29,090 nucleotides of DNA from a virus (taxonomy: Duplodnaviria > Caudoviricetes). A program made the position numbers and the translations under genes. The notes under the pieces were generated by a model. That model had not been told where the DNA came from. It made no database searches and saw nothing but the letters and a program-made list of their open reading frames with translations. Shown here in pieces: positions 1-28,954 of this stretch. The DNA lies in the IMG/VR virus record IMGVR_UViG_3300032243_000118, positions 1 to 29,090 of that record; one strand, given 5' to 3'. Within the stretch, counting starts at the first letter, position 1; each line of letters starts with the position of its first letter.

Positions 1-123
1 AATCTAGTTCTTCTTGGTGAACAGTAATTGCAGTTTCAAGCGTGACCAATGCAGCCATTGACGATGCAACCGATTCAGCATCGTTGATTTTTTCAGCGAT
101 CTGACGGTTAAGTTCATGCTGAT
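1..123. repeat. Terminal direct repeat, copy 1 (circular assembly overlap)
   Basis: 1..123 is identical to 28968..29090, and an ORF reads through the junction. Confidence 0.97.
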
Positions 124-211
124 ACGCTTCGCCAGCAAATTGCTCAATGCGCTGTGTTAATAAGTTGCGCTTGTGTTCATCTGTTAGAAGTGTGTTGAAG
201 TCAATAGCCAT
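1..211 (-). CDS. 73-aa hypothetical protein spanning the circular junction (possible fibre assembly chaperone)
   Basis: Not in ORF track. ATG at 211 after AGGGAAA RBS. MAIDFNTLLTDEHKRNLL...HQEELDLLG continues across the junction to TAA at 28957..28959. Confidence 0.8.
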   Translation of the reverse strand, partial: MAIDFNTLLTDEHKRNLLTQRIEQFAGEAYQHELNRQIAEKINDAESVASSMAALVTLETAITVHQEELD

Positions 212-221
212 TTGTTTTCCC

Positions 222-1679
222 TTAGGTTTGTGGAATGTTGTCTAGAATTGTTGTTTCTGCGCCAGCCGTTCCAGCGCGAACAACAAGTTTTAGGGTGCCA
301 GCGGTTGTGCCATCACGAAGATAAATCTTGGCTTGGTTGGCTAATGGATTGGCTGCTGCCGAAGTCATCTTTGTAAGTCGCAAACGACCACCACTATTTT
401 CTTCAACCAATGTTGCCAAATCTGTAATGGTATTTATGTTTGTCGCTCTCAATACGCCTGCAGAACTCATTGTTGCCAATGCAGTACCGCCAGAGTTTTG
501 CCATTGTTGTAAATCGCTAGATTGCGAAGCAGCACCACGAATAATCTGCCCAATAGTTCCAGCACTACGCGCTGTCACACTAGCCTGAGCAGGTGCGCTT
601 ACAGTTCCAGCGACAGTCTGCGCTCCAGTTGTTGCGTTCAAATACGAAACTGTGAACGGTGAAGTATTGCTAACTGCCGTTACTAATGCGCCTGTTGTGT
701 TGTAACCCGTAGGAGTTACGCCAGCAACAACTATCAGATCACCAACGGCAAGGTTAGTCGCGCTAGTCATTGTCAAAGTTGCAGTTGTGCCATCGCCAGA
801 TGCAGCCGTTGTCGCGCCACCAACGCCAGAGTTAATTGTTGTTGTTGAGCCTGAATAGATTTGGGCAACTGCGTTACGACCGCCAAGGATGGTTGAAGCG
901 GAGTTCATGTATTGCATTGAATCAACATTTGCGCTTGATGCCATGCGAACAATGATTCCAAGTTGCGATGCAGCAAAAGGTTTTACGCTTAATAAGTTGT
1001 TGTTAATAACTCCTGTGCCACCGAGAGATAAAAAAGCATTTGAATTCATAGCAGAGCGAATTGTTCCGCCGTCAATTTGCCATTCTTGCAAGTTGGCTGT
1101 TTGTGATGCCACTCCACGAATTATTGAAGTAACAATAGATACTCCGCCACCCACTATTCCAAGTCTTACGCCTAACGAAGTTGTTGAACCAGCCGTAATA
1201 TTTCCTTGAGCAATAAAAGAACCAGCAGATGAAAAAGCATTTAAAAGTGCATCAGCAGAACTTCTAATTTCTAGAGTGTTTACGCTTTGACCAGCAACAC
1301 CAATTATTTTCAAACCAATAACATCGCTAGCGTTTGTAATCGTATGACCGCCAACTGTGAAAGCGTTGGCTGAACCTAGTCGCGCATAGCGACCATCATT
1401 AGTTGTATTTTGTGCAGTTTGGTCAAAGCCTAATTGCGCTGAAGTCAAAGTTCCAGAGTTAGTGATTGGAGCAGTAACGCCAATTACACCACTTGATCCT
1501 GTCGCGCCTGTGGCTCCAGTTGCACCCGTTGCTCCAGTAGCCCCTGTTGCCCCTTGAATGCCTACGTTTGAAGTCGTAATATTTGCCGTAGTTTCAGTTA
1601 CTGAAATTGTTGCCGATGTATCGGAAGTGACTACAACGCTTGCATTGGTTTCAGCTATGACAATTGTTGCATCAGCCAT
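222..1679 (-). CDS. Fibre-like virion protein with collagen-like repeat
   Basis: 485 aa, G/S/T/A-rich. (GAT)x6 collagen tract and four copies of an IIRGxASQxxxLQxWQ-like module. Confidence 0.7.
   Translation of the reverse strand: MADATIVIAETNASVVVTSDTSATISVTETTANITTSNVGIQGATGATGATGATGATGATGSSGVIGVTAPITNSGTLTSAQLGFDQTAQNTTNDGRYARLGSANAFTVGGHTITNASDVIGLKIIGVAGQSVNTLEIRSSADALLNAFSSAGSFIAQGNITAGSTTSLGVRLGIVGGGVSIVTSIIRGVASQTANLQEWQIDGGTIRSAMNSNAFLSLGGTGVINNNLLSVKPFAASQLGIIVRMASSANVDSMQYMNSASTILGGRNAVAQIYSGSTTTINSGVGGATTAASGDGTTATLTMTSATNLAVGDLIVVAGVTPTGYNTTGALVTAVSNTSPFTVSYLNATTGAQTVAGTVSAPAQASVTARSAGTIGQIIRGAASQSSDLQQWQNSGGTALATMSSAGVLRATNINTITDLATLVEENSGGRLRLTKMTSAAANPLANQAKIYLRDGTTAGTLKLVVRAGTAGAETTILDNIPQT
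1491..1562 (-). repeat. Collagen-like Gly-X-Y repeat GIQ-(GAT)6-GSS
   Basis: Read directly from the translation; codons are synonymously varied. Confidence 0.9.
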
Positions 1680-2026
1680 TACTTCGTAACCTCTGGATCA
1701 ACTAGGAAAGTTCCCTGAATAAGTCTTGTCACCGCGCTACCGCCAGATACAAGTTCCAAGTCATAAACGTATTGTCCTGTTGCTACGCCTGCCGTTGTCG
1801 TAGCTGTCGCGTTGATAAGAATCGTGCCGGCAGTTCCACCTAGCGTGATTCCTGAACCGCTAGTTAAATTCAAGATCGCAGTATCAGAAGCAAAACTTGA
1901 GCGAACCTGCATACGGCCTGTATATCCCGTTAGATTGACAGGTAAAGAATTAACATTCCAAGTAAGCGATAAATCAAAAGTCGCGCCCTGATACATTGTG
2001 ACGTTGTAAATTGCTGGATTCTGCAT
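1679..2026 (-). CDS. Small beta-rich virion protein (BppU-N/Ig-like fibre adaptor)
   Basis: MYQGATF...VNLTGYTGRMQVR...YVYDLEL...LIQGTF pattern, typical of adaptors upstream of collagen fibres; TAATG coupling to the next gene. Confidence 0.6.
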   Translation of the reverse strand: MQNPAIYNVTMYQGATFDLSLTWNVNSLPVNLTGYTGRMQVRSSFASDTAILNLTSGSGITLGGTAGTILINATATTTAGVATGQYVYDLELVSGGSAVTRLIQGTFLVDPEVTK

Positions 2027-2035
2027 TGAAAGTCC

Positions 2036-2644
2036 TTAAGTTGTCATCGCGGCTGTTCGCGAGATTTCATTTAATTTATTGCCGTCTGAAATAAAACTGA
2101 TTGTATAGGTTCTAGCAAGTCCTGCCGAACCAAGAACTGTCAAAGTACCTGTTGTTCTAAAGTGACTCGGATTAAAAGTTATGATTCTAGATGTTGAAGC
2201 AGTAGCTGATTTAACAATTAAATTGCAGAAAGTTCCAGCAGGAACAGATATTGATTGCGAAAGTGTAAAGGCAGCACCGCCATTTTCAAGTCTTATGACG
2301 TTATATTGTTCAAACGACAAATCTTGAGCCGCGCTAATAATTCCAATGTCAAGATAAGAACCACTAATGATTCCGCTACTAACTATTTTTATGCCGTTGA
2401 TTCCTGCAATGAAACCTGAACCAGTTATGTCTGTGCTATTAACGATAGGAACGTCAAAAGTCGCTTGTGTTGTATTGACTAGAAATGCACTTGATAATGA
2501 AAGATAGTCAAAAGCATTGATAGTTAAAGCCTGAAGTTGATCTGAAAGATAAATAGAACTTGCATTCAAAGCTCCTAAATCATCTCGCAAGACAACTGAA
2601 TTTGGAGTTTCAGTATTAGTAAATAAATATTTCGATTGAGTCAT
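2036..2644 (-). CDS. Putative virion fibre/decoration protein
   Basis: 202 aa, S/T/G-rich beta-type C-terminus (YTISFISDGNKLNEISR); translationally coupled to the portal gene. Confidence 0.5.
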   Translation of the reverse strand: MTQSKYLFTNTETPNSVVLRDDLGALNASSIYLSDQLQALTINAFDYLSLSSAFLVNTTQATFDVPIVNSTDITGSGFIAGINGIKIVSSGIISGSYLDIGIISAAQDLSFEQYNVIRLENGGAAFTLSQSISVPAGTFCNLIVKSATASTSRIITFNPSHFRTTGTLTVLGSAGLARTYTISFISDGNKLNEISRTAAMTT

Positions 2645-4002
2645 TATTGAACACCATAAACTGATTCAGGATTTAGTGGATCAATTTGTGCAATTGATTG
2701 CAACGCAGTCGATGGAAGTCCCGTATGTGAAATCTTAGGTAGGTTTAATGCCACCAAAACAGAAGCAGGATCAAAGCCCGATAAAATAAGTTTTTGAGCC
2801 ATCGTAACGCGCTTATCAGTTTCAACAAGAGAAGCTGCGCCAAGATCAACGTTAGCCAAAGGCACACGATAAACATCGCCACCATCGACTGGTCGTAAAT
2901 CCTCAAATCGTCTAATGTCATTAACACTTAAGAATCCTGCCTGCGAACCGATTGAATAACCATTCATGCGAGTTGCAAAGTCACCACGCAAAAGTCCATC
3001 TACGTTAAAGCGAATGAACGCGCCTTGTGGCAGTAGTGCGCTATAAGCATCTTCCATTTTGGCAATGTATGGGCGCAAGGTATGAGTCACAAAGTTAATG
3101 CTGTTTTGTTCTACGGATGCGTAAGACTGCGCTCCCGGTGTTGTTACGCCGATCATGTGCGGTGGAACTCTAAACATTCTTGCTACTTCTTCAATGGCTA
3201 ACTTGCGACTATCTAACATCTGCGCTTCGTCTGGATTCACGCCAGTTCTAACAAACTTTGCGCCACCTGTTAGAAGTCCAGTTTTGTTTGACTTTCTAAA
3301 TCCGCTATGACGTTGATTAAATCCATCAACAAGGTTCTTAGCTTGATCGCTGTTTAGGCTTTGTGGAGTTTCGATAATTCCTGAAGTTGTTGCGCCTTGT
3401 CCAAAGAACCTAGAAGCAAAAGATTGCAGGGCAGTTGTTAGACCTAGATTGTCTTTAAGTTCTGTGACTCTAGACATTCCGCGCAGATCGCCAGCCTTGC
3501 GCAATTCTGTAATCTGAAGCATATCTTGTTTGCTTACTGCTACTGATTCGTTTTCGTCAATGATGTATTCGATCTCACGAGTTACTTTGTTACGAGATAC
3601 ACGAACCCGATACGGGTCTATGACAACAAGGTTGATAACCTGACCAGAGTTATCGCGGAATACTCGAATGAAAGCGTTGCCGTCTAACAATAAAGAAATA
3701 AGAACTTGTTGGTAATGTTCTGAACGCAACAGATCAACGTCTGGTCTTTGAATCCAAGCAGGTTGCGGGCGATAAGGCACACGATCACCATCACGCCGAA
3801 TGAAGGAATCAACTGGAAGCGTTGAGATCGTGTCAGAGATTAAAAGAACGCAAGCGTAGAAAGCATTAATTTTCATCGCTTGAGTTTGATCTATGTTTGT
3901 GCCGGCTTCAGTTGTGAATGCAAAAGAATCGCCTGCGCCCCAAATGGATTGAAAGCTGATCGCGCGTTCTTCTTCATTGCGACCTGTTAAATTACCAAGC
4001 AT
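2644..4002 (-). CDS. Portal protein, HK97 family
   Basis: YACVLLISDTISTLP, LLLDGNAF, EEVARMFRVPPHMIG, FNVDGLLRGD, SVNDIRRFEDL motifs; follows TerL. Confidence 0.95.
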   Translation of the reverse strand: MLGNLTGRNEEERAISFQSIWGAGDSFAFTTEAGTNIDQTQAMKINAFYACVLLISDTISTLPVDSFIRRDGDRVPYRPQPAWIQRPDVDLLRSEHYQQVLISLLLDGNAFIRVFRDNSGQVINLVVIDPYRVRVSRNKVTREIEYIIDENESVAVSKQDMLQITELRKAGDLRGMSRVTELKDNLGLTTALQSFASRFFGQGATTSGIIETPQSLNSDQAKNLVDGFNQRHSGFRKSNKTGLLTGGAKFVRTGVNPDEAQMLDSRKLAIEEVARMFRVPPHMIGVTTPGAQSYASVEQNSINFVTHTLRPYIAKMEDAYSALLPQGAFIRFNVDGLLRGDFATRMNGYSIGSQAGFLSVNDIRRFEDLRPVDGGDVYRVPLANVDLGAASLVETDKRVTMAQKLILSGFDPASVLVALNLPKISHTGLPSTALQSIAQIDPLNPESVYGVQ

Positions 4003-6700: not shown

Positions 6701-7006
6701 CCCTTTTTTTGGTGGAGTATTGCCACGCCTTGAGTTACAAGACCTATGCGCTGGAATCAACGGACTAGATGGATCGCCGGGGTAGTAGTGATCAGCCGTA
6801 AACGGATCATCCAACCTGCGGCCTTGTCCGCAAAGCCAACAGACCGTAGCCGTATCTCGTACTTGTTTAGCCTGTTTAGCGTATGAACCCTTGTAATGCG
6901 GTCTATTGGCGTTCCTATTGGCTTCTGCAACCTTCTGACAGTCGTTACAGAGTGATGGGTTACGGTGTAAGGCTTTGCACTTTAAGCAGGGTTTATTGAA
7001 CGCCAC
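6698..7006 (-). CDS. HNH endonuclease (terminase-associated, gp74-like)
   Basis: CWLCG...TADH...AHRSCNSRRG plus N-terminal CxxC pairs; upstream of the terminase genes. Confidence 0.9.
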   Translation of the reverse strand: MAFNKPCLKCKALHRNPSLCNDCQKVAEANRNANRPHYKGSYAKQAKQVRDTATVCWLCGQGRRLDDPFTADHYYPGDPSSPLIPAHRSCNSRRGNTPPKKG

Positions 7007-7553
7007 GTTGCATGACTTTGCCGTTGGTGTAGCTGCGGTACTGGTCTAGTGTTCCGCGTGTATTTGGATCGTGCATAGATGCGGCTTCCATTGCCCGTAG
7101 CGCAGATAAGTCGTGGTTCTTGTTCCAGTCGGGTTTGTATTGCTTATCAGCTAATGAACCCAATGCAAGGTTCGCTCCTGATCCAATTGCCCAATAAGGC
7201 TGCGCAGATAGAACGCTTAAGTCCTCGCCAATTAAGAATGACTTGCCATGCGTTACAAGGATTGCTTCTGCATCCATTTCTTTATCTTTGACAACGTGAT
7301 CAATCAATGGGATCACTTTAGTCACTAACCACTTGAGCCATGCGCCAGACTTAACAACATCTAGTGGTGGTTTAGGGTAATCAATGCCGTATTGCAACTG
7401 ATCGCAGACTCTTGCGCTACCGGCAACGCCAATCAGCCAAGTATCTTGTTGAACGATCTTCTTCATGTTGGGATGAATAACGTCTGAAGTAATACCCTGA
7501 TCTGCCGTTAATGCGCAGAAGTTATTTCCCGTTGTCGTGATGATCGTTGTCAT
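6993..7553 (-). CDS. Proteasome beta/HslV-like Ntn-hydrolase protease
   Basis: After Met removal: Thr1, Asp17, Lys31, GVAGS, AIGSG and DPNTRG, matching the beta-subunit catalytic layout. Confidence 0.85.
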   Translation of the reverse strand: MTTIITTTGNNFCALTADQGITSDVIHPNMKKIVQQDTWLIGVAGSARVCDQLQYGIDYPKPPLDVVKSGAWLKWLVTKVIPLIDHVVKDKEMDAEAILVTHGKSFLIGEDLSVLSAQPYWAIGSGANLALGSLADKQYKPDWNKNHDLSALRAMEAASMHDPNTRGTLDQYRSYTNGKVMQRGVQ

Positions 7554-8781: not shown

Positions 8782-9105
8782 TTATCCTGCTTCCTTTTGA
8801 TCGCGCAAAGTGCGCTTGTATTTTGCTTCTTGAGTTTGCGAACCAAATGAATCTTTGTATGGTTCGTCAATCCGTACTGGAGTTATGCCAAAGAACCTGC
8901 GCATTTCCTCTCGTACCTTTTCATTCGTGCCTGCCCAATAACCGCTTACCTTGACCTTTAGTGCGTAGTCAATGCAACCATCAAATACCGGGCAATTCAT
9001 GCAAGTCTTTTCCAATAACTTTTCTATCTTTGGTGCCATGTTGTTAGTTGGAAAGAACAGTTCTGGGTCTAGCCCAATGCAACTCGCGCCGTCTGTGTTA
9101 AACAT
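8782..9105 (-). CDS. whiB: WhiB-family transcription factor
   Basis: C..DPELFFP...CMNCPVFDGC...GYWAGT; four Fe-S cysteines; start refined to MFNTDG. Confidence 0.9.
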   Translation of the reverse strand: MFNTDGASCIGLDPELFFPTNNMAPKIEKLLEKTCMNCPVFDGCIDYALKVKVSGYWAGTNEKVREEMRRFFGITPVRIDEPYKDSFGSQTQEAKYKRTLRDQKEAG

Positions 9106-9508
9106 CCGAAATCTCGCTTGCAATTACCTGACAACCAATGCGATCTGTTGCGTATTGCTTTGAAGCACTAACGGCAATAACCAACGCATCGTCTGTATAA
9201 AGTCCGCCAGTTGTGAGTCCATCAAATGTGCTGCGAATCAGCTTGTCGAGATCAGGTTTAACCGCAGGCCACTTGCGCGTGACAGTCTTAGGTCTAGGCA
9301 AGTGAAACACCAGCGCGATCTCTACCGGTGTGTCCATTGAGTTAAGTGTTGCCCAACTCATGTGTTGCGCGGTCTTGATCGTTACGGCTTCGCGCCACGG
9401 CTTAACCTTTTTGCTTGACTCAACGATGACAACGCGCCCGTTCTTTACAAAGCCATTCTTAGAACCTTGTGGCGCAGGTTCGCCGTCTATCCAAAAACTA
9501 ATCATCAT
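9098..9508 (-). CDS. rusA: RusA-like Holliday junction resolvase
   Basis: GEPAPQGSK, KPDLDKLIRSTFDGL, DDALVI motifs. Confidence 0.92.
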   Translation of the reverse strand: MMISFWIDGEPAPQGSKNGFVKNGRVVIVESSKKVKPWREAVTIKTAQHMSWATLNSMDTPVEIALVFHLPRPKTVTRKWPAVKPDLDKLIRSTFDGLTTGGLYTDDALVIAVSASKQYATDRIGCQVIASEISDV

Positions 9509-10856: not shown

Positions 10857-11195
10857 CTAATTTAAGTACCCAAAAACCCTTAGAAATGCGCGTTTTTCTA
10901 GTCTTTCCTTTGGAATCTTGCCAGACTTTCGCAATTTCTCGCGTTCGATTGGATCAAATCCGCCCCACATTCCCCACTTTTCGTCAATGCCGATTTCTAG
11001 GCAGAATCCAACTACCGGGCAGATTTCACACAAGCGTTTGGCTATGGCGTATAGGTGCGGTTCTTCATCTGGTGGAAAGCAAGTATCAGGGTTTGCATCT
11101 CTGCAAGCTGCGGAATACATCCACGAATCAGGCGCGGTGCAGATCAGGCACATACCTGATTCAAGCCAAGCTTCGTGATCGCAGTCTTTGAGCAT
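10857..11195 (-). CDS. whiB: WhiB-family transcription factor with N-terminal CxH..CxxC extension
   Basis: AACRDANPDTCFP...LCEICPVVGFC...GMWGG. Confidence 0.9.
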   Translation of the reverse strand: MLKDCDHEAWLESGMCLICTAPDSWMYSAACRDANPDTCFPPDEEPHLYAIAKRLCEICPVVGFCLEIGIDEKWGMWGGFDPIEREKLRKSGKIPKERLEKRAFLRVFGYLN

Positions 11196-22247: not shown

Positions 22248-22955
22248 TCACAAACCTAGTTCTGATCTGACTTGTTGTATGTGCGCTTTGCCAATTGAAT
22301 CATGCTCTGATGGTCTGCCTATTCCACTCATTGTTACTCTGCCGTATCCAATGTCATAAATACATCGAATAGTTGTAGCGTGAAATGGTTTTGCTCCAGC
22401 TGCCACGCAACGAATGTAAAGTTCCCAATCATCAAAAATCGCGCCTTTAGTATGTCCACCAGTTCGTTGAAATAACTCACGTTTGATCGGAGCGGAACCT
22501 GGGCAGGTCATTTGGCTAGGTATCAATTCAGGAATCCATCGGCCTTCCATAATTGATCCATCATGCTTGAACTGCAACTTGTCAATGTAAATGTCGCAAC
22601 CTTCTGCATCTGCTTGATCTAGTTCATCAAATGCACCGGGCAGATAACAATCATCAACACCAATAAGTGAGAACCAATCGGCAGTTTGTTCTGTTTGGAT
22701 TTTAAGCATGAAGTCTGCAAACTCGCCTTGCATCTCAATAATCTTTGTGATCTTTTTATACTCTTGTGGAATTGTTGAATGCACTAATTCTTTATTTTGT
22801 GAATCGTGCGCAAAAACTATTGAATCTGGTTGTCTTTTGAGTGATTGAACACCTGTCCAATAGGTAGGTAAAAACTCACTATAAGTTGTACCAAATAAAC
22901 AAACACCTAACCCAAGTGTTAATGAATCCTTTTTTATTTTTGAACCAATCGCCAA
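22248..22955 (-). CDS. Glycosyltransferase, GT-A fold (GT2-like)
   Basis: GVDDCY DxD-like motif; IKRELFQRTGG and FDDWELYIR; start uncertain. Confidence 0.75.
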   Translation of the reverse strand: MAIGSKIKKDSLTLGLGVCLFGTTYSEFLPTYWTGVQSLKRQPDSIVFAHDSQNKELVHSTIPQEYKKITKIIEMQGEFADFMLKIQTEQTADWFSLIGVDDCYLPGAFDELDQADAEGCDIYIDKLQFKHDGSIMEGRWIPELIPSQMTCPGSAPIKRELFQRTGGHTKGAIFDDWELYIRCVAAGAKPFHATTIRCIYDIGYGRVTMSGIGRPSEHDSIGKAHIQQVRSELGL

Positions 22956-23749
22956 AATGTATCCCCTGCATTATCAATCATGTGTCTTAAGTGGTCTTTG
23001 TCTTGCCAATCTTCAATGCTGGTAAGTCCTACGTTCTCGTTCGTATGAATTCTGCAACCTGACAATACGGCTTCCATAACTGCACGACATTCAGATTCAA
23101 ACGCTAAAGGTAAGTGAACAAACCATTCACACCTTGCCATTGCATCTAAGACTTCATCTCGCGGTACGTTGCTAAGTGCTTTAAATTTGTAACCGCCTTG
23201 CGCTGCCCAAATCTCTGCTTTGAGTTTTCCCTTGAGTGGATGACTACGCGCTGCCCATAATGCAAACGGTTGTTTGTCCATATGGTCATAACATTTTGAA
23301 GTATCGAAGTAGCTTAGAACTTGCGCGGCCTTTCGTGGTTTAGTCCATGCAAGTTCCCTGCGCAGATGTGCCGGCGTATGCGTTACGAATAAGCGACTGC
23401 TACGAATCAATGTGTTTAGTCCTGCGCGTGGTGTTTGTAAGTGATGCACAAAGACAAACGGCTCATGCTTGCTAATCTCGTTCAGCTGCTGATCCGTAAA
23501 CAAATCCGTTCCAGTTACAACAACAGAATCGAACTGGTGTATGTCATGTGTATCAAAAGTTTCTGGCGTGACGATTTGTATATCAAAACCTAGCGGTGCT
23601 TGAAGTCGGTATTCGTAGTCAGACATTTCCGCCCCACCTGCAAACCTGCCAGAGAACAGTCCATTGAGTGCCGATTCCTGCCCCGTAGAAGCATTGTAAG
23701 CCACGTTCGACACGTTCTCTATGTGATGGGTGTACCAACCTATTTTCAC
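22934..23749 (-). CDS. Glycosyltransferase, GT-B fold (GT4-like, compact)
   Basis: GGAE, R-x-HPLKG, and ESECRAVMEAVLSGC (EX7E). Confidence 0.8.
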   Translation of the reverse strand: MKIGWYTHHIENVSNVAYNASTGQESALNGLFSGRFAGGAEMSDYEYRLQAPLGFDIQIVTPETFDTHDIHQFDSVVVTGTDLFTDQQLNEISKHEPFVFVHHLQTPRAGLNTLIRSSRLFVTHTPAHLRRELAWTKPRKAAQVLSYFDTSKCYDHMDKQPFALWAARSHPLKGKLKAEIWAAQGGYKFKALSNVPRDEVLDAMARCEWFVHLPLAFESECRAVMEAVLSGCRIHTNENVGLTSIEDWQDKDHLRHMIDNAGDTFWRLVQK

Positions 23750-24927
23750 GCCGTAGGCCGTTCTGTACCTTTAGCCCCTATAACCTCTATTGCAGGTTTC
23801 CAGTATGCGTTAAACACTATGTCTGCGCTATACGCCTTTGCAAAATCTTGCGCCTTTTGTGAGCGACCTCTGCCACGCTGATACGCCTGTTCCAGCGCAT
23901 CGACAATGCCGGGAACGCTAGGCATATGAAACCACGCTGATTGCGGCGCATCCCATAAAGGCTGACCATCAACTAGCCAACCATCGCCAACGAGTTCTGT
24001 CGAAGCTGCAAAGTCTGAAACGATTACTGGAGTTCCGCAGGCTTGCGCTTCTACCGTTGGAACTCCAAAGCCTTCGCCGTAGCTAGTGGCAAGTAAAACA
24101 TCCATTGCCGTATAAAGAGTTGCTAAAGTCGATTGATCTATTCCTGTTCTAAGTAGATATGGATCAACGAACGAATACTGGTGTTCTTTGATTCCACAAG
24201 ATAAGATCAGTTCTTGAAGTTTGATTCCACCCAATGAACCACTTGCGTCTGTGTGCAGATAAAGAACAACGTCATCGTGCATCTGCGCAAAGATACTAAA
24301 CGCTAGAATGTTCTCACCAAAAGCCTTGCGGTTAGGTGACACGCCTTTGTTAGCCGCGTTCATTCCAACAATAAATACATCATCACTAGCACCAATGAAA
24401 TCTCTGCCAGTAACTCCCTTATGTCGCTTCATGGGTTTGAATGCAGAATCAATAGCGTGTGGAATGTATAACGCTTCAATTCCTACGTTCTCTAACATTG
24501 CTTGCCCGTACTGACTCATGGCAATTGGAGTTACAAATTCTTGTCTGCACCATGAAGCAACTGCTGGCGGTGCTGGAATGTGATCAACTGGAACCCAACT
24601 AGCAACGTTCCAATCTGACCATCGTTTGCCTTTAAGAACCCAAACGTCATAAAGCGTAAACAAGATGTGATTCTGATTTTTATTATGTTCTGTCCAATTA
24701 AACATATGAGCAGGAATAACGTCATTGGAATACATATCTGCACCGCGCTGATAAATCGGGATTCCGTTCCAGTCGCTGTTGCTTCCCTCTAGACCGTAGT
24801 TGTTAAAGACTGCAACATTGTGACCCATTGCTTTCATACGGCTAGTGACTTGAGCAGTTGCTACGCCATAACCCGTATTAGCCCACGGTGCGTTTGATAC
24901 CCAACCAATACATAAAGAATCCTGCAC
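23746..24927 (-). CDS. Glycosyltransferase, GT-B fold (GT4)
   Basis: TGYG, RKAF, EGFGVPTVEAQACGTPVI (EX7E). Confidence 0.93.
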   Translation of the reverse strand: MQDSLCIGWVSNAPWANTGYGVATAQVTSRMKAMGHNVAVFNNYGLEGSNSDWNGIPIYQRGADMYSNDVIPAHMFNWTEHNKNQNHILFTLYDVWVLKGKRWSDWNVASWVPVDHIPAPPAVASWCRQEFVTPIAMSQYGQAMLENVGIEALYIPHAIDSAFKPMKRHKGVTGRDFIGASDDVFIVGMNAANKGVSPNRKAFGENILAFSIFAQMHDDVVLYLHTDASGSLGGIKLQELILSCGIKEHQYSFVDPYLLRTGIDQSTLATLYTAMDVLLATSYGEGFGVPTVEAQACGTPVIVSDFAASTELVGDGWLVDGQPLWDAPQSAWFHMPSVPGIVDALEQAYQRGRGRSQKAQDFAKAYSADIVFNAYWKPAIEVIGAKGTERPTA

Positions 24928-25040: not shown

Positions 25041-26225
25041 TTAGGAAGCAGCTCCAGCGAAATACTTAACGTGTGACGTTTGTGGCAAGTTGCCATCCAC
25101 GCGGAAAGTAGCTCTGAAGGTGATTAGGTCATTCTGGAATGCGTAATCATCTGAACGATCCAAACGAATGCCACCAACAGAACGAACATAGTAGCTAGGT
25201 AGGTGTCCGAAGATAACCGACTTTGCACTTGTTGCTGCGTTTGCCATTGCTGGGTTTTCGTAGATTGGGTAACCAAGAAGCAAGTCACGAGCTTCAGCGG
25301 TTAGTGATGGGCTGAACAGGTAGTTGCCAACGCTGTCCTTCAATTTACGAACGCGACCAATGGTTTGTCCGTTCATCTGCCAACCAGTTCCCGGCATTGT
25401 GCGACCTGCAACATCGACAGAGTAAACCAAGTCGATTAGGTTGTCTGCGGTGAACACACCAGCAACACCAGTTCCACCGGTGATGCCTGAACCTGCTGCG
25501 GTTACGATGCCTGTTGGCTGTACCGTTCCAGTTCCAGTTGTTAGTGCGGTATTGACTGCATAGCCAAGTGAGTTACCAACCTGTGATGCAAGGAATCCAA
25601 GAATGTCCACGCCTGCATCAGAAACCATTTCGCGGCTGATCTGTGTTAGGAATGAATACTTGTAAGCACTCAAAGTAGTAAAGCTATTGAAAGCCATGTC
25701 AGACTCACCAATTAGTGCTGCTTCACTAGTTACAGTTCCAACGGAACGAGATGCAAGTGAAGGAATCTGCAAGTTCTCGCCGCCAGTGGTATTGATTGTT
25801 GTTGAAGTTTCCAACATTGGGCCTACATAACGTGCAATTTCAATTACGTTGTTGTAAAAACTGGTAGGTACGGGTGCGCCAGTATTCGACTTTAGAATGT
25901 CGCGCTTTTCAAATGAAAGTGAACGAACATCACCAAGAGCAAGCGAACGAATCATTTCTGCTTCGTCTGTGCCACGAGTTTCCGTGTTTGCCTGTGCTTC
26001 AAATCCAGCCATTGCTTCAGCGGCGCGAGTTTCGCGTTCTACTGATGCCTTGATGGTGTCGATTGTTGCAGCACGCTGATCAAGATCAGACATGATGCGA
26101 TCATAAGTTTGATTTTCTTCTGCGGATAGATCGCGCTTTTCAGCTGCTGCTGAGTCAAGAAGAGCCTTTGCTTCTTCCCAAGCCTTTGCACGAGCTTCCA
26201 CTTGCTGACGAATGTAGTCAGACAT
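25041..26225 (-). CDS. Major capsid protein, HK97 family with delta domain
   Basis: Coiled-coil N-terminus; GTGTVQPTGI, LKDSVGNYLF, LLGYPIYEN, IFGHL, RVDG; TAGGAG RBS. Confidence 0.96.
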   Translation of the reverse strand: MSDYIRQQVEARAKAWEEAKALLDSAAAEKRDLSAEENQTYDRIMSDLDQRAATIDTIKASVERETRAAEAMAGFEAQANTETRGTDEAEMIRSLALGDVRSLSFEKRDILKSNTGAPVPTSFYNNVIEIARYVGPMLETSTTINTTGGENLQIPSLASRSVGTVTSEAALIGESDMAFNSFTTLSAYKYSFLTQISREMVSDAGVDILGFLASQVGNSLGYAVNTALTTGTGTVQPTGIVTAAGSGITGGTGVAGVFTADNLIDLVYSVDVAGRTMPGTGWQMNGQTIGRVRKLKDSVGNYLFSPSLTAEARDLLLGYPIYENPAMANAATSAKSVIFGHLPSYYVRSVGGIRLDRSDDYAFQNDLITFRATFRVDGNLPQTSHVKYFAGAAS

Positions 26226-26384: not shown

Positions 26385-28688
26385 TTAGAACGCTTTAAGC
26401 ATTAGATCAAGTTGCTTACGCTTGATCTCAAGTAGATCGTTCTGATTAGGAACATCTGCCCGTAGCTTTGAAACAACTTCGCTAATCAAATTCGCATGAT
26501 CGGCTTCTAAAGTTTCGCCTGCTTCTAGTCGTGTGATCGCATCGCTTAAGGCATCTACATCTACGGCAGTACGAGTTGCAAGAATGTCTAATGAACGAAC
26601 GCTTGCAGTTGTCGCTTCGTAAGCAGGGAATCCAGTCACAATAGAAACTTCATGCAAACGAACTTGATGGAGTTCGCGTGTGTTTCCATCTTGACTCCAT
26701 GAATCACCTTTAGGTGGAACGCTAAAGCCAAATGACATTGAAGAAACATCGCCACGCTTCATAAGTACCGATAGATCGCGCCCGGAAGTCGTGTCTGGTA
26801 GATCGGCAGTTGCAAGTAATCCGCGTGAATCTTCAGTTAGTCGTAAAGTTCCAGCGCGAGTTGAACCTAAAACTACGTCTGTGTTGTGGTTCATAAACAG
26901 TTTGATTTCGTTTCGAGATTTTAACGAACGCTTAAATGCACCTTCTTTGATTACTTCAGTAAACGGCAACGGCTCACTAGGACTATTGAATACGGCTGCG
27001 TATCCTGTAAAACTCATACCATCGATTGATGCTTCAGCTGCGCGAATGTCAAACTCAACATTATTAACGCGGCGTTCTACTGTAGTTTCCATTGACTGCC
27101 CTTCTTTACTTCTTAAGTTTAACGTGACTGATTTCCAACGTGCATTCATTTCATTAACTGTTTCAGTCATTGATTCTTGTATGCCTAAGTAACTTTCAGG
27201 AATAACCCAAAGTTTGCAGATCGCTTCAGGCTCAATCATGCCTTCGACTATCTGACATTGTTGCGCGTTTTCATTGTAAAAAATGCAGTTGTTACAAATT
27301 AGTCCATCAGCCTTAAAAGGATTGTTAGCCGCTGGCGCGTAGTGCGCTCCATCTGCATCTGTTGATTGGTTATACATTCCGTATTCCAAAGCAACATTGG
27401 CTTGATTCTCTGCTTGTTCTTGCTGGCGATCATTAAGCAAATCCCATTCGCCTACATCGCGGATTTCATAACCAGTCATTTTGTTACTCCTATTTGCTTG
27501 ATCAAGTTTAACGCGATCAGAAACTGCTTGTGCATAATCTAAGGTTCGTTGTGCTTGTCTGCGGTTTGATCCTGAACCCCAAAGTAAATGAGCAACCACA
27601 CCCGGTGATGGGTAGTTAGGTGAAGTTGGATCGGCATCTAGTGAATCTAGATCGCCAATGTGTCGCGCAATCCAAGCTGCAAGTCGAACCCATTTATCAT
27701 CTGAAACTTTGCCATCTGCCATCAATCGTGCTTCGCGTATGGTTCTTTCAACTAAACCTTGACCACCTTTGCCCTCTGCGTAGTAGGCAAGACCACGCCT
27801 AGCGTTGGCTCTCATGTAAGCAGGAGCATCTTGATTTACTGCGCGAGATTCTAGGCTTCGCATTGACTCTAGTTCTGATGGATGAATTGACTTAATGCCT
27901 AATGCTTCAAATGCCTTGCGATTGGCTTCATCATTATCAATGGCTAGAACAATGTCATAACGAGTAAGTAATCTTTTGGCTATTGATGCTTTCCATTCTG
28001 GCGTTGGCTGATCAACATCTTTCATGAATAGCGCGGTGTAATTAACTCCAAATTCATCTAGTTGCTTTACAGTTTCTTCACGTTGCGCAACTGGTCTAGC
28101 AGTAACAATCATCTTGCGCCCATCCATAGCGTTTATGGCATCTATAACGCCTTGCATGGGTTTGCCGAAGTGAATCAAAGTATCGTCAATGTCCACGATT
28201 ATTGCCTTTGGATCACCAACTGCGCGAGTCATGTCTTGAATCAAAGTTTCATTTTGTGCTTGTGGTAACTGCTCAAGTTTCGTTAATGGTGCTAATCGCT
28301 TCATCACGAATAGTTGTGTATCTTGCAGACCCCCGTTAAACATTTCATAAACCTGAATACTTGCAACTGGTGATTCTTGCGTTGCGATCATCTGACCGCC
28401 TGTTGGAGTATTGACTTGACCAAAAGTTGAGATGAAAGTTATTTCACCATATAAAGTATTTCCAGTTTCATCCCATGAAACATAATCGCCAACTACTAAT
28501 TCATAAAGCAAAGCCCGCATTGAATCTTTGAGTTCGCCACCGGGAACAATCTTTTCAGCTAGGGAAACGGCAACCATCTGATCAATTGCGCCTTGCTTGT
28601 TTGCATGGCAACCAACGACTTCACCATCGGCCTTGACAGTTGCCCAACCGTTGCATGAAGTTTCTTTATCTGTGATGAAATACGGCAT
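26385..28688 (-). CDS. Multidomain prohead protease (767 aa): unknown domains, HAD phosphatase, HiPIP-like 4-Cys domain, HK97 S78 protease
   Basis: Protease motifs FTGYAAVF, MNHN, SMSFGF, LHEVSIVTGFPAY; HAD motif DIDDTL; start refined to MPYFITD by TGATG coupling. Confidence 0.9.
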   Translation of the reverse strand: MPYFITDKETSCNGWATVKADGEVVGCHANKQGAIDQMVAVSLAEKIVPGGELKDSMRALLYELVVGDYVSWDETGNTLYGEITFISTFGQVNTPTGGQMIATQESPVASIQVYEMFNGGLQDTQLFVMKRLAPLTKLEQLPQAQNETLIQDMTRAVGDPKAIIVDIDDTLIHFGKPMQGVIDAINAMDGRKMIVTARPVAQREETVKQLDEFGVNYTALFMKDVDQPTPEWKASIAKRLLTRYDIVLAIDNDEANRKAFEALGIKSIHPSELESMRSLESRAVNQDAPAYMRANARRGLAYYAEGKGGQGLVERTIREARLMADGKVSDDKWVRLAAWIARHIGDLDSLDADPTSPNYPSPGVVAHLLWGSGSNRRQAQRTLDYAQAVSDRVKLDQANRSNKMTGYEIRDVGEWDLLNDRQQEQAENQANVALEYGMYNQSTDADGAHYAPAANNPFKADGLICNNCIFYNENAQQCQIVEGMIEPEAICKLWVIPESYLGIQESMTETVNEMNARWKSVTLNLRSKEGQSMETTVERRVNNVEFDIRAAEASIDGMSFTGYAAVFNSPSEPLPFTEVIKEGAFKRSLKSRNEIKLFMNHNTDVVLGSTRAGTLRLTEDSRGLLATADLPDTTSGRDLSVLMKRGDVSSMSFGFSVPPKGDSWSQDGNTRELHQVRLHEVSIVTGFPAYEATTASVRSLDILATRTAVDVDALSDAITRLEAGETLEADHANLISEVVSKLRADVPNQNDLLEIKRKQLDLMLKAF

Positions 28689-28954
28689 CAGTCTTGTGTC
28701 TGCCTTAACCAAGAAACTTGATGTGATCCAGTTGCGCTAATTGCGTGTAACGCTTCGCCCGGATTCATAATAAGTTCAATGCTATCTAACTTCATCAAAC
28801 GCAAACCGTTAGTAGTTGTAACTGAACCATTGCCTAAAAATAGATCATTCGTATTGTCGTTATTGTGAACGTGCAAACGAGATGGACTCGTTGAGATTCC
28901 ATCTATCGCAGTCGCTGAAGTTGTGACTAATAGCTGACCTGAAGTTATAGCCAT
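28688..28954 (-). CDS. Small beta-sandwich virion/decoration protein
   Basis: 88 aa; LHVHNND...LFLGNGSVTTTNGLRL; lies in the head operon. Confidence 0.6.
   Translation of the reverse strand: MAITSGQLLVTTSATAIDGISTSPSRLHVHNNDNTNDLFLGNGSVTTTNGLRLMKLDSIELIMNPGEALHAISATGSHQVSWLRQTQD

Follow-up and report, generated by a model that had tools for sequence, protein, structure and literature searches.

Shuffled modules ahead of an HK97-type prohead protease: a candidate self-processing cargo chain in tailed phages

Results and Discussion

The Protease Gene and Its Genomic Context

The window analyzed here (the whole stretch of DNA, 29,090 nucleotides) comes from a freshwater phage; it is a genome of ~29 kb, circularly permuted, with a terminal repeat of 123 bases. 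On its minus strand, a 767-aa open reading frame (ORF; 26385..28688) encodes a chain of candidate cargo modules, an HK97/S78 prohead protease, and a C-terminal tail. This gene directly precedes that of an HK97-type major capsid protein with a delta domain (25041..26225, minus strand; maturation is predicted to cut it after Arg108, codon 25902-25904), and the portal (2644..4002, minus strand) begins with a short N-terminal peptide that extends up to Arg13 (EER|A). A preliminary description of the sequence had held that extra domains precede the HK97/S78 protease, and this is borne out: all five upstream modules are present, and the S78 domain lies at residues 546-699 (PF04586, Pfam E 2e-44), with TIGR01543 also above its curated cut-off. 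Residues H601, S652, and E680, which from the S78 family we take to be the catalytic residues of the protease, do not vary across 63 sequences (alignment A1).

The ORF gives no sign of being a chimera or of running through a missed stop, two readings raised in the same description. They are left unsupported by a full-length protein that is 97% identical (P0002, possibly from a related sample) and by contigs from two runs belonging to other studies (X2 and X3), in which neither a joint nor an indel occurs within the ORF; the X2 contigs listed cover it end to end. No RNA dataset carrying the sequence was among those listed, which has no bearing on its expression. A single X2 contig diverges at position 27860, the border between the HAD and RRGL modules described below, as expected of a variant with a different upstream module.

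Two WhiB-like genes (8782-9123 and 10857-11195, both on the minus strand) and presumably encoding Fe-S regulators, make an actinobacterial host likely. Of the named phages in the GenBank phage collection, phiPsal1 is the closest; its protease carries the N-module, 4-Cys, and RRGL types seen here, again with Arg at the junctions. It appeared as a minor contig in DNA prepared from Pontimonas, and the phage is no longer available (PMC6106888).

Modules of the Chain

The chain opens with an N-module (aa 1-58; 28515..28688, minus strand, as are all segments of the ORF), a beta-beta-beta-alpha unit with Cys12, Cys27, and His28 that ends in the junction Arg58 (codon 28515-28517). Next come an all-beta Tudor/SH3-like module (aa 59-155; 28224..28514), which ends in Arg155 and is homologous to modules matching Pfam Hva1_TUDOR, and a HAD phosphatase module (aa 156-282; 27843..28223), which ends in Arg282. 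The latter carries HAD motifs I-IV and the T4 Pnkp phosphatase fold, with intact catalytic motifs; its best match is the T4 Pnkp 3'-phosphatase (E 5e-6), and lipin/Nir2 HADs also match structurally. The catalytic motifs are conserved in 118-123 of 123 copies (the first Asp being the alignment anchor), and PF25109 matches homologues, the copy in the 767-aa ORF falling under the Pfam cut-offs. The basic, helical RRGL module (aa 283-410; 27459..27842) ends in Arg410 and retrieves nothing from PDB sequences below E 0.3. Neither it nor the N-module belongs to a named family: the Atlas gives only unnamed viral clusters, and the PHROG match is PHROG 2859, whose function is unassigned.

The fifth module (core aa 412-503; 27111..27458) is predicted to bind a [4Fe-4S] cluster in the manner of a high-potential iron-sulfur protein (HiPIP). 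Its four Cys ligands (C-x2-C...C...C, then Trp) are invariant in 47 sequences, and modeled alone it reaches a pLDDT of 91. An HMM comparison matches it to HiPIP 3h31 (E 7.6e-4), and the top nine of 12 Foldseek matches are HiPIPs, albeit weak ones (E 0.12-7.5); a Pfam search of the 767-aa ORF yields no HiPIP match. The preliminary description had the protease carrying enzyme domains; among the modules of this protein, only the HAD is a recognizable enzyme, and the rest are binding or Fe-S domains of small size. The recurrence of HiPIP-like, ferritin, and phosphatase modules (the ferritin being found in relatives, below) suggests that the cargo handles iron and redox and repairs the ends of nucleic acids.

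The S78 protease core (aa 550-698; 26595..27041) is bounded by Arg549 and Arg698, and a helical C-terminal tail follows (aa 699-767; 26385..26594). Bare proteases keep this tail as well, and by analogy with tail-mediated packaging in HK97 it likely binds the prohead. The N-module leads in 350 of its 356 occurrences and in 9 of 14 chains with intact 5' ends that are split from the protease, and may thus be a further, head-targeting candidate. In an AlphaFold model built on a 63-sequence alignment, confident domains span residues ~1-50, 63-144, 160-276, and 286-401, and the stretches with pLDDT<50 between them (52-62, 145-159, and 277-285) contain R58, R155, and R282, respectively. The domain parsing proposed earlier therefore places all three judgeable junctions in low-confidence linkers between predicted domains; residues 402-556 of the full model are uninformative.

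Arginine at the Module Junctions

The preliminary description had assigned x-R-[A/S/D] motifs to the domain borders as candidate cleavage sites. The positions are correct, both in the ORF (R58 at 28515-17, R155 at 28224-26, R277/R282 at 27860/27845, R410 at 27459-61, R549, and R698) and in the capsid (R67 and R108) and portal (R13), and an Arg does precede each module; the pattern itself is too loose, the following residue being variable. Among 374 junction 9-mers, Arg is followed by A (51%), Q (16%), E (8%), I (8%), N (5%), or V (5%). By hand count the pattern occurs 14 times in the ORF, at least four of these within folded domains (R293, R587, R611, and R637), so that the concern over motifs lying inside domains was partly justified; the border residues are nonetheless conserved (R58 in 43/43, R155 in 47/47, R282 in 61/61, and R410 in 9/9 sequences). 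Not all of the motifs named are cargo borders: SMRS (R277) is conserved in just 3 of 55 sequences, DIRA and SVRS lie on either side of the protease core, and in the capsid EKRD (R108) is invariant in 41/41 sequences but ETRA (R67) is not. Given the variability of SMRS and the occurrences inside domains, the motif as first written is not proof by itself, and it was dropped in that form. Conservation of Arg alone was likewise set aside as non-discriminating, given that many internal Arg equal those of the junctions in this respect.

A more discriminating feature is position. In unique sequence contexts, Arg occurs at one fixed offset upstream of the RRGL (77% of 332), Tudor (81% of 111), HAD (89% of 106), and second 4-Cys (90% of 83) modules; elsewhere in the 25 residues upstream of these modules, its frequency per position is 0-8%. 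The linker preceding the junction Arg is acidic, and the Arg is present regardless of the upstream partner (509/532, in more than 30 different neighbor pairs). In stand-alone modules, Met occupies the junction position, which suggests a requirement for a free N-terminus at this point of the module. All six Arg codons occur at junctions, which rules out DNA microhomology as the origin of the residue.

Shuffling of Modules Among Relatives

Relatives were identified with the protease domain as the sole query (best 80 of 591 confirmed), the scan covering 8 of the collection's 64 parts. Among the 67 ORFs with intact 5' ends in this set, 56 bear cargo, in 16 arrangements. As anticipated in the preliminary description, cargo swaps while Arg linkers persist: modules are shuffled, duplicated, and exchanged, and the junction Arg stays. 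The RRGL module is found in nearly every chain. Modules beyond those of the 767-aa ORF comprise DUF5824, DUF3721, a Dps-like ferritin, and a second 4-Cys module, whose likeness to HiPIP was judged by eye only. DUF5824 also has a match in the cultured Roseobacter phage CRP-822 (purified in PMC12629253). The ferritin-like domain lies within the cargo chains of P0212, P0228, and P0261, the last two of which include the protease as well.

The chain may also be an ORF separate from the protease (17 loci among those listed), in most cases adjoining the protease gene and retaining the junction Arg. Such detached chains add zeta-toxin, ADP-ribosyltransferase (ART), GNAT, and SprT-like domains, and these additions often begin after an Arg with short leaders, e.g., R|HLPGKHxQKxH or R|xxPxQPR. 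One split chain terminates in a zeta-toxin domain (L057:960-2782); in another, the final domain is ART-like as judged by eye, and a RelA/SpoT-like ORF lies behind it (L069:2348-5567). Both effectors start at R|HLPGKHxQKxH, and the small ORF after each could be an antitoxin. Identical module types are also joined to portals, to the protease-capsid fusions of the cultured phages S-CBS1 (a Synechococcus phage), CRP-701, and CRP-811, and to a minor head protein of a Nodularia phage. On large head-region proteins of the 129-kb actinophage DSL-LC01 (L263:119-5234), the RRGL, HiPIP-like, and another 4-Cys module are accompanied by repeated A-A-G / V-A-S motifs, which might mark yet another specificity. 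At two further loci (L195:2774-5461 and L208:2207-5255), N, HiPIP-like, Tudor, RRGL, and HAD modules occur as genes of their own beside others that, as judged by eye, are ferritin/Dps-, thioredoxin-, GroES-, and Hsp20-like, at a distance from any head gene seen in the locus. Such company suits the iron/redox theme and would equally suit a role in the cytoplasm.

The Junction Residue Matches the Capsid and Protease Sites

The more distant carriers listed number 150 of 1144 for the RRGL module and 80 of 133 for the HiPIP-like module. Among the carriers listed are phages with Lys at the capsid delta junction or the protease flank, and in these the same modules follow Lys. In the Arg-type phages, Arg occurs in 512/528 junction windows vs. 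60/528 adjacent control windows; in the Lys-type phages, Lys occurs in 46/47 vs. 8/47, the sole exception being a mis-typed Arg phage. This comparison leaves out modules at a protein start, and its junction windows were chosen after the offset profiles had been seen. At the tip of the portal, most Arg-type relatives have E-x-R or E-R at the place matching Arg13.

The reference residue was defined, after one change of rule, as the last basic residue of a run. Under the initial rule, which misread K-R|D capsid sites, 57 units had included three Lys/Arg and one Arg/Lys mismatches. When the capsid serves as reference, 40 de-replicated units comprise 29 Arg/Arg, nine Lys/Lys, one uncalled, and one mixed (Fisher p 6e-9, kinship ignored), and with the protease flank, 62 units comprise 46 Arg/Arg, 11 Lys/Lys, three discordant, and two mixed. 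The switch is confined to the junction: in Lys-type phages the internal R342 remains Arg (13/13), whereas the junction is Lys (12/12). In the RRGL-module tree the reference switches six times and the junction seven times; a tree-corrected test has three well-supported independent pairs, all concordant, a number that cannot reach significance (p=0.25), and the HiPIP-like tree offers one independent pair. Base or amino-acid composition was ruled out as the cause of the switch (mean GC 0.58 vs. 0.50; K/(K+R) 0.39 vs. 0.41 between the two types).

HK97 provides a calibration, as its known capsid site, K103/S104 (PMC10275583), falls where the calling rule looks. Inspection by eye places Lys at both protease flanks of HK97 gp4, where the 767-aa ORF has R549 and R698; the D3 protease is annotated as ClpP-like and offers no control for the rule. 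In some carriers (P0177, P0205, P0226, and L082:5392-10369) inspection by eye places the same modules after F-x-E or E|A motifs, and those of the Nodularia phage after F-x-E; a third, Glu-cutting class is possible.

Proposed Processing and Fate of the Chain

The architecture of these chains, their shuffling, and the match of the junction residue to that of the capsid and the protease are direct observations. The protease-cargo chain is real, modular, and widespread, and comparative evidence that it would process itself is strong. In the reading that we favor, to which we give a probability of roughly 0.7, the chain is cut inside the prohead, and the small proteins released are probably kept in the head. 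That the phage's own protease does the cutting is, on comparative grounds, likely; of the earlier proposal that the protease releases its attached domains, it is the cleavage that is favored by module swapping with persistent Arg, by the placement of the linkers, and by the switch to Lys.

The chain would join the prohead during assembly, as other HK97-type proteases do, brought in, it is likely, by the protease tail and/or the N-module. Cuts would fall behind the junction Arg, within linkers that are acidic and flexible, and the capsid delta domain and portal tip would be cut alongside. A point against self-processing is that many conserved internal Arg could be cut by a trypsin-like enzyme; those within folded domains would likely be protected. 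The predicted pieces are 6.1, 10.8, 14.2, 14.2, and ~13 kDa, and these 6-14 kDa products would stay in the head and be delivered with the DNA. By analogy with T4 internal proteins, we regard retention followed by ejection as an even bet. The HAD piece would heal 3'-phosphate nucleic-acid ends, and the HiPIP-like piece would carry its [4Fe-4S] cluster.

The released modules might instead be disposable assembly or scaffold aids, cut off at Arg and digested so that they leave the head as the delta domain does. The near-universal RRGL module would suit such a role, internal Arg are plentiful enough for digestion, and T4 loses some cleaved core proteins, e.g., gp68 (PMC9026906, table). Disposable aids would hardly be expected to preserve HAD catalytic motifs and four invariant Cys to the extent seen here, or to be optional, swappable, and joined in the chains of relatives by ART, zeta-toxin, and ferritin domains, and we consider this explanation unlikely.

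Release of the modules from a late-expressed polyprotein into the infected cytoplasm, where they would serve iron, redox, and nucleic-acid-end repair functions, is quite unlikely. It draws on the stand-alone copies in stress-gene clusters of other phages (L195 and L208), whose distance from any head gene seen is also a point against virion cargo, and on the chains encoded apart from the protease. Those split chains, however, mostly sit beside the protease gene with their junction Arg kept; the fusion partners observed are head proteins (protease, portal, capsid, and MuF); and HK97-type proteases co-assemble in the prohead, at ~60 copies in HK97 and 90 in D3 (PMC12749128). Finally, that the junction Arg is an uncut structural cap or recombination scar is very improbable: Arg is common and other Arg are as conserved, but this one precedes six unrelated modules, is encoded by all six codons, changes to Lys along with the capsid junction while internal Arg stay as they are, and gives way to Met in stand-alone genes.

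If cargo release in the head is correct, each copy of the protease would bring several small proteins into the HK97-type heads of a large group of siphoviruses from fresh and marine waters, heads that are commonly regarded as holding nearly DNA only. The residue preceding each module would then predict protease specificity and mature N-termini, the proteins that uncultured phages hold in the head or eject could be named from sequence, virion-borne Fe-S and ferritin cargo would be directly testable, and the chain would represent a modular route for loading proteins into capsids. Trypsin-based virion proteomics would be blind to these cuts. More speculatively, and on balance doubtfully, small aquatic tailed phages may share cargo cassettes re-tuned to their protease (Arg, Lys, possibly Glu), which load an iron/redox and nucleic-acid-repair kit (HiPIP-like, Dps-like ferritin, 3'-phosphatase) and host-takeover enzymes into the virion as an encapsulin-like payload, for protection of the genome in the water column or for injection.

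Relation to Known Systems

The closest precedent is the polyvalent proteins of Iyer 2017 (PMC5512222), some ending in an assemblin-like peptidase and proposed to be packaged in the virion and processed. As there, disparate domains are joined in one phage polypeptide with a C-terminal head-maturation peptidase, and the chains of relatives share ART, GNAT, RelA/SpoT-like, zeta-toxin, and SprT-like domains with that repertoire; in the 767-aa ORF itself, profile searches recovered no zincin MPTase, ART, GNAT, BECR, or other typical effector domain of that study. The available main text mentions no cleavage motif, Arg/Lys co-variation, Tudor, RRGL, HiPIP-like module, or DUF5824, some of which the supplementary architectures may list. 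Protease-fused cargo was thus already predicted (Iyer 2017), and what our literature search did not find is a specificity-matched cassette library. That search, to which most subscription papers were closed, returned no motif-delimited array or matched-junction cassettes and no virion proteome of a carrier, and the available portions of PMC7824862, PMC10052503, PMC12629253, PMC13669383, and bioRxiv 2022.09.09.507160 contain no account of a cassette array.

In T4, IPI-III and Alt are loaded into the prohead, freed by gp21 at a short motif, and vary between relatives (PMC9026906). These cargoes are encoded by separate genes with a 10-residue targeting peptide, and gp21 cuts after Glu (PMC9026906); the 767-aa chain, by contrast, places several cargoes on the protease itself and is likely cut after Arg or Lys, so that it would work in a T4-like manner and is not a member of that system. 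HK97 gp4/gp5 share with it the S78 protease, the delta-domain capsid, and a basic residue at the junction and both protease flanks (PMC10275583, PMC12749128), but gp4 is a bare, cargo-free protease of 225 aa with Lys specificity. Effectors fused to MuF, portal, or protease, including a Nudix domain fused to a head peptidase (Iyer 2022; PMC9503650), similarly place enzyme domains on head proteins as a proposed delivery route; those are single fusions, whereas the chains here form a shuffled array of cassettes with matched putative cut sites. Encapsulins likewise co-assemble an HK97-fold shell with protein cargo (PMC13669383), and the same source speculates that procapsids could contain biochemical cargo; they do so without protease, portal, or genome. 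As points of caution, most SPN3US head proteins are uncleaved (PMC10052503), and the delta-domain cleavage sites of actinophage capsids were reported as not predictable (bioRxiv 2022.09.09.507160).

Other Genes in the Window

An 88-aa gene with no known family (28688-28954, minus strand) overlaps the start of the protease gene and possibly encodes a small head protein; a similar small gene lies between portal and protease in L057, L069, L095, and phiPsal1. Between the portal and the 88-aa gene (1-2644, minus strand) are a 202-aa ORF, a 115-aa ORF (PHROG 1084/3304), and a 485-aa, fibre-like ORF with collagen repeats. In relatives this region is often empty or holds other inserts, making it a second place at which the head operon varies. 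Directly after the capsid gene are three ORFs (22248-24927, minus strand), two of which have glycosyltransferase Pfam matches; glycosyltransferases follow the capsid gene in phiPsal1 as well, and are candidates for capsid glycosylation. This 29-kb phage also encodes an HslV-family peptidase (PHROG 1040; 6993-7553, minus strand).
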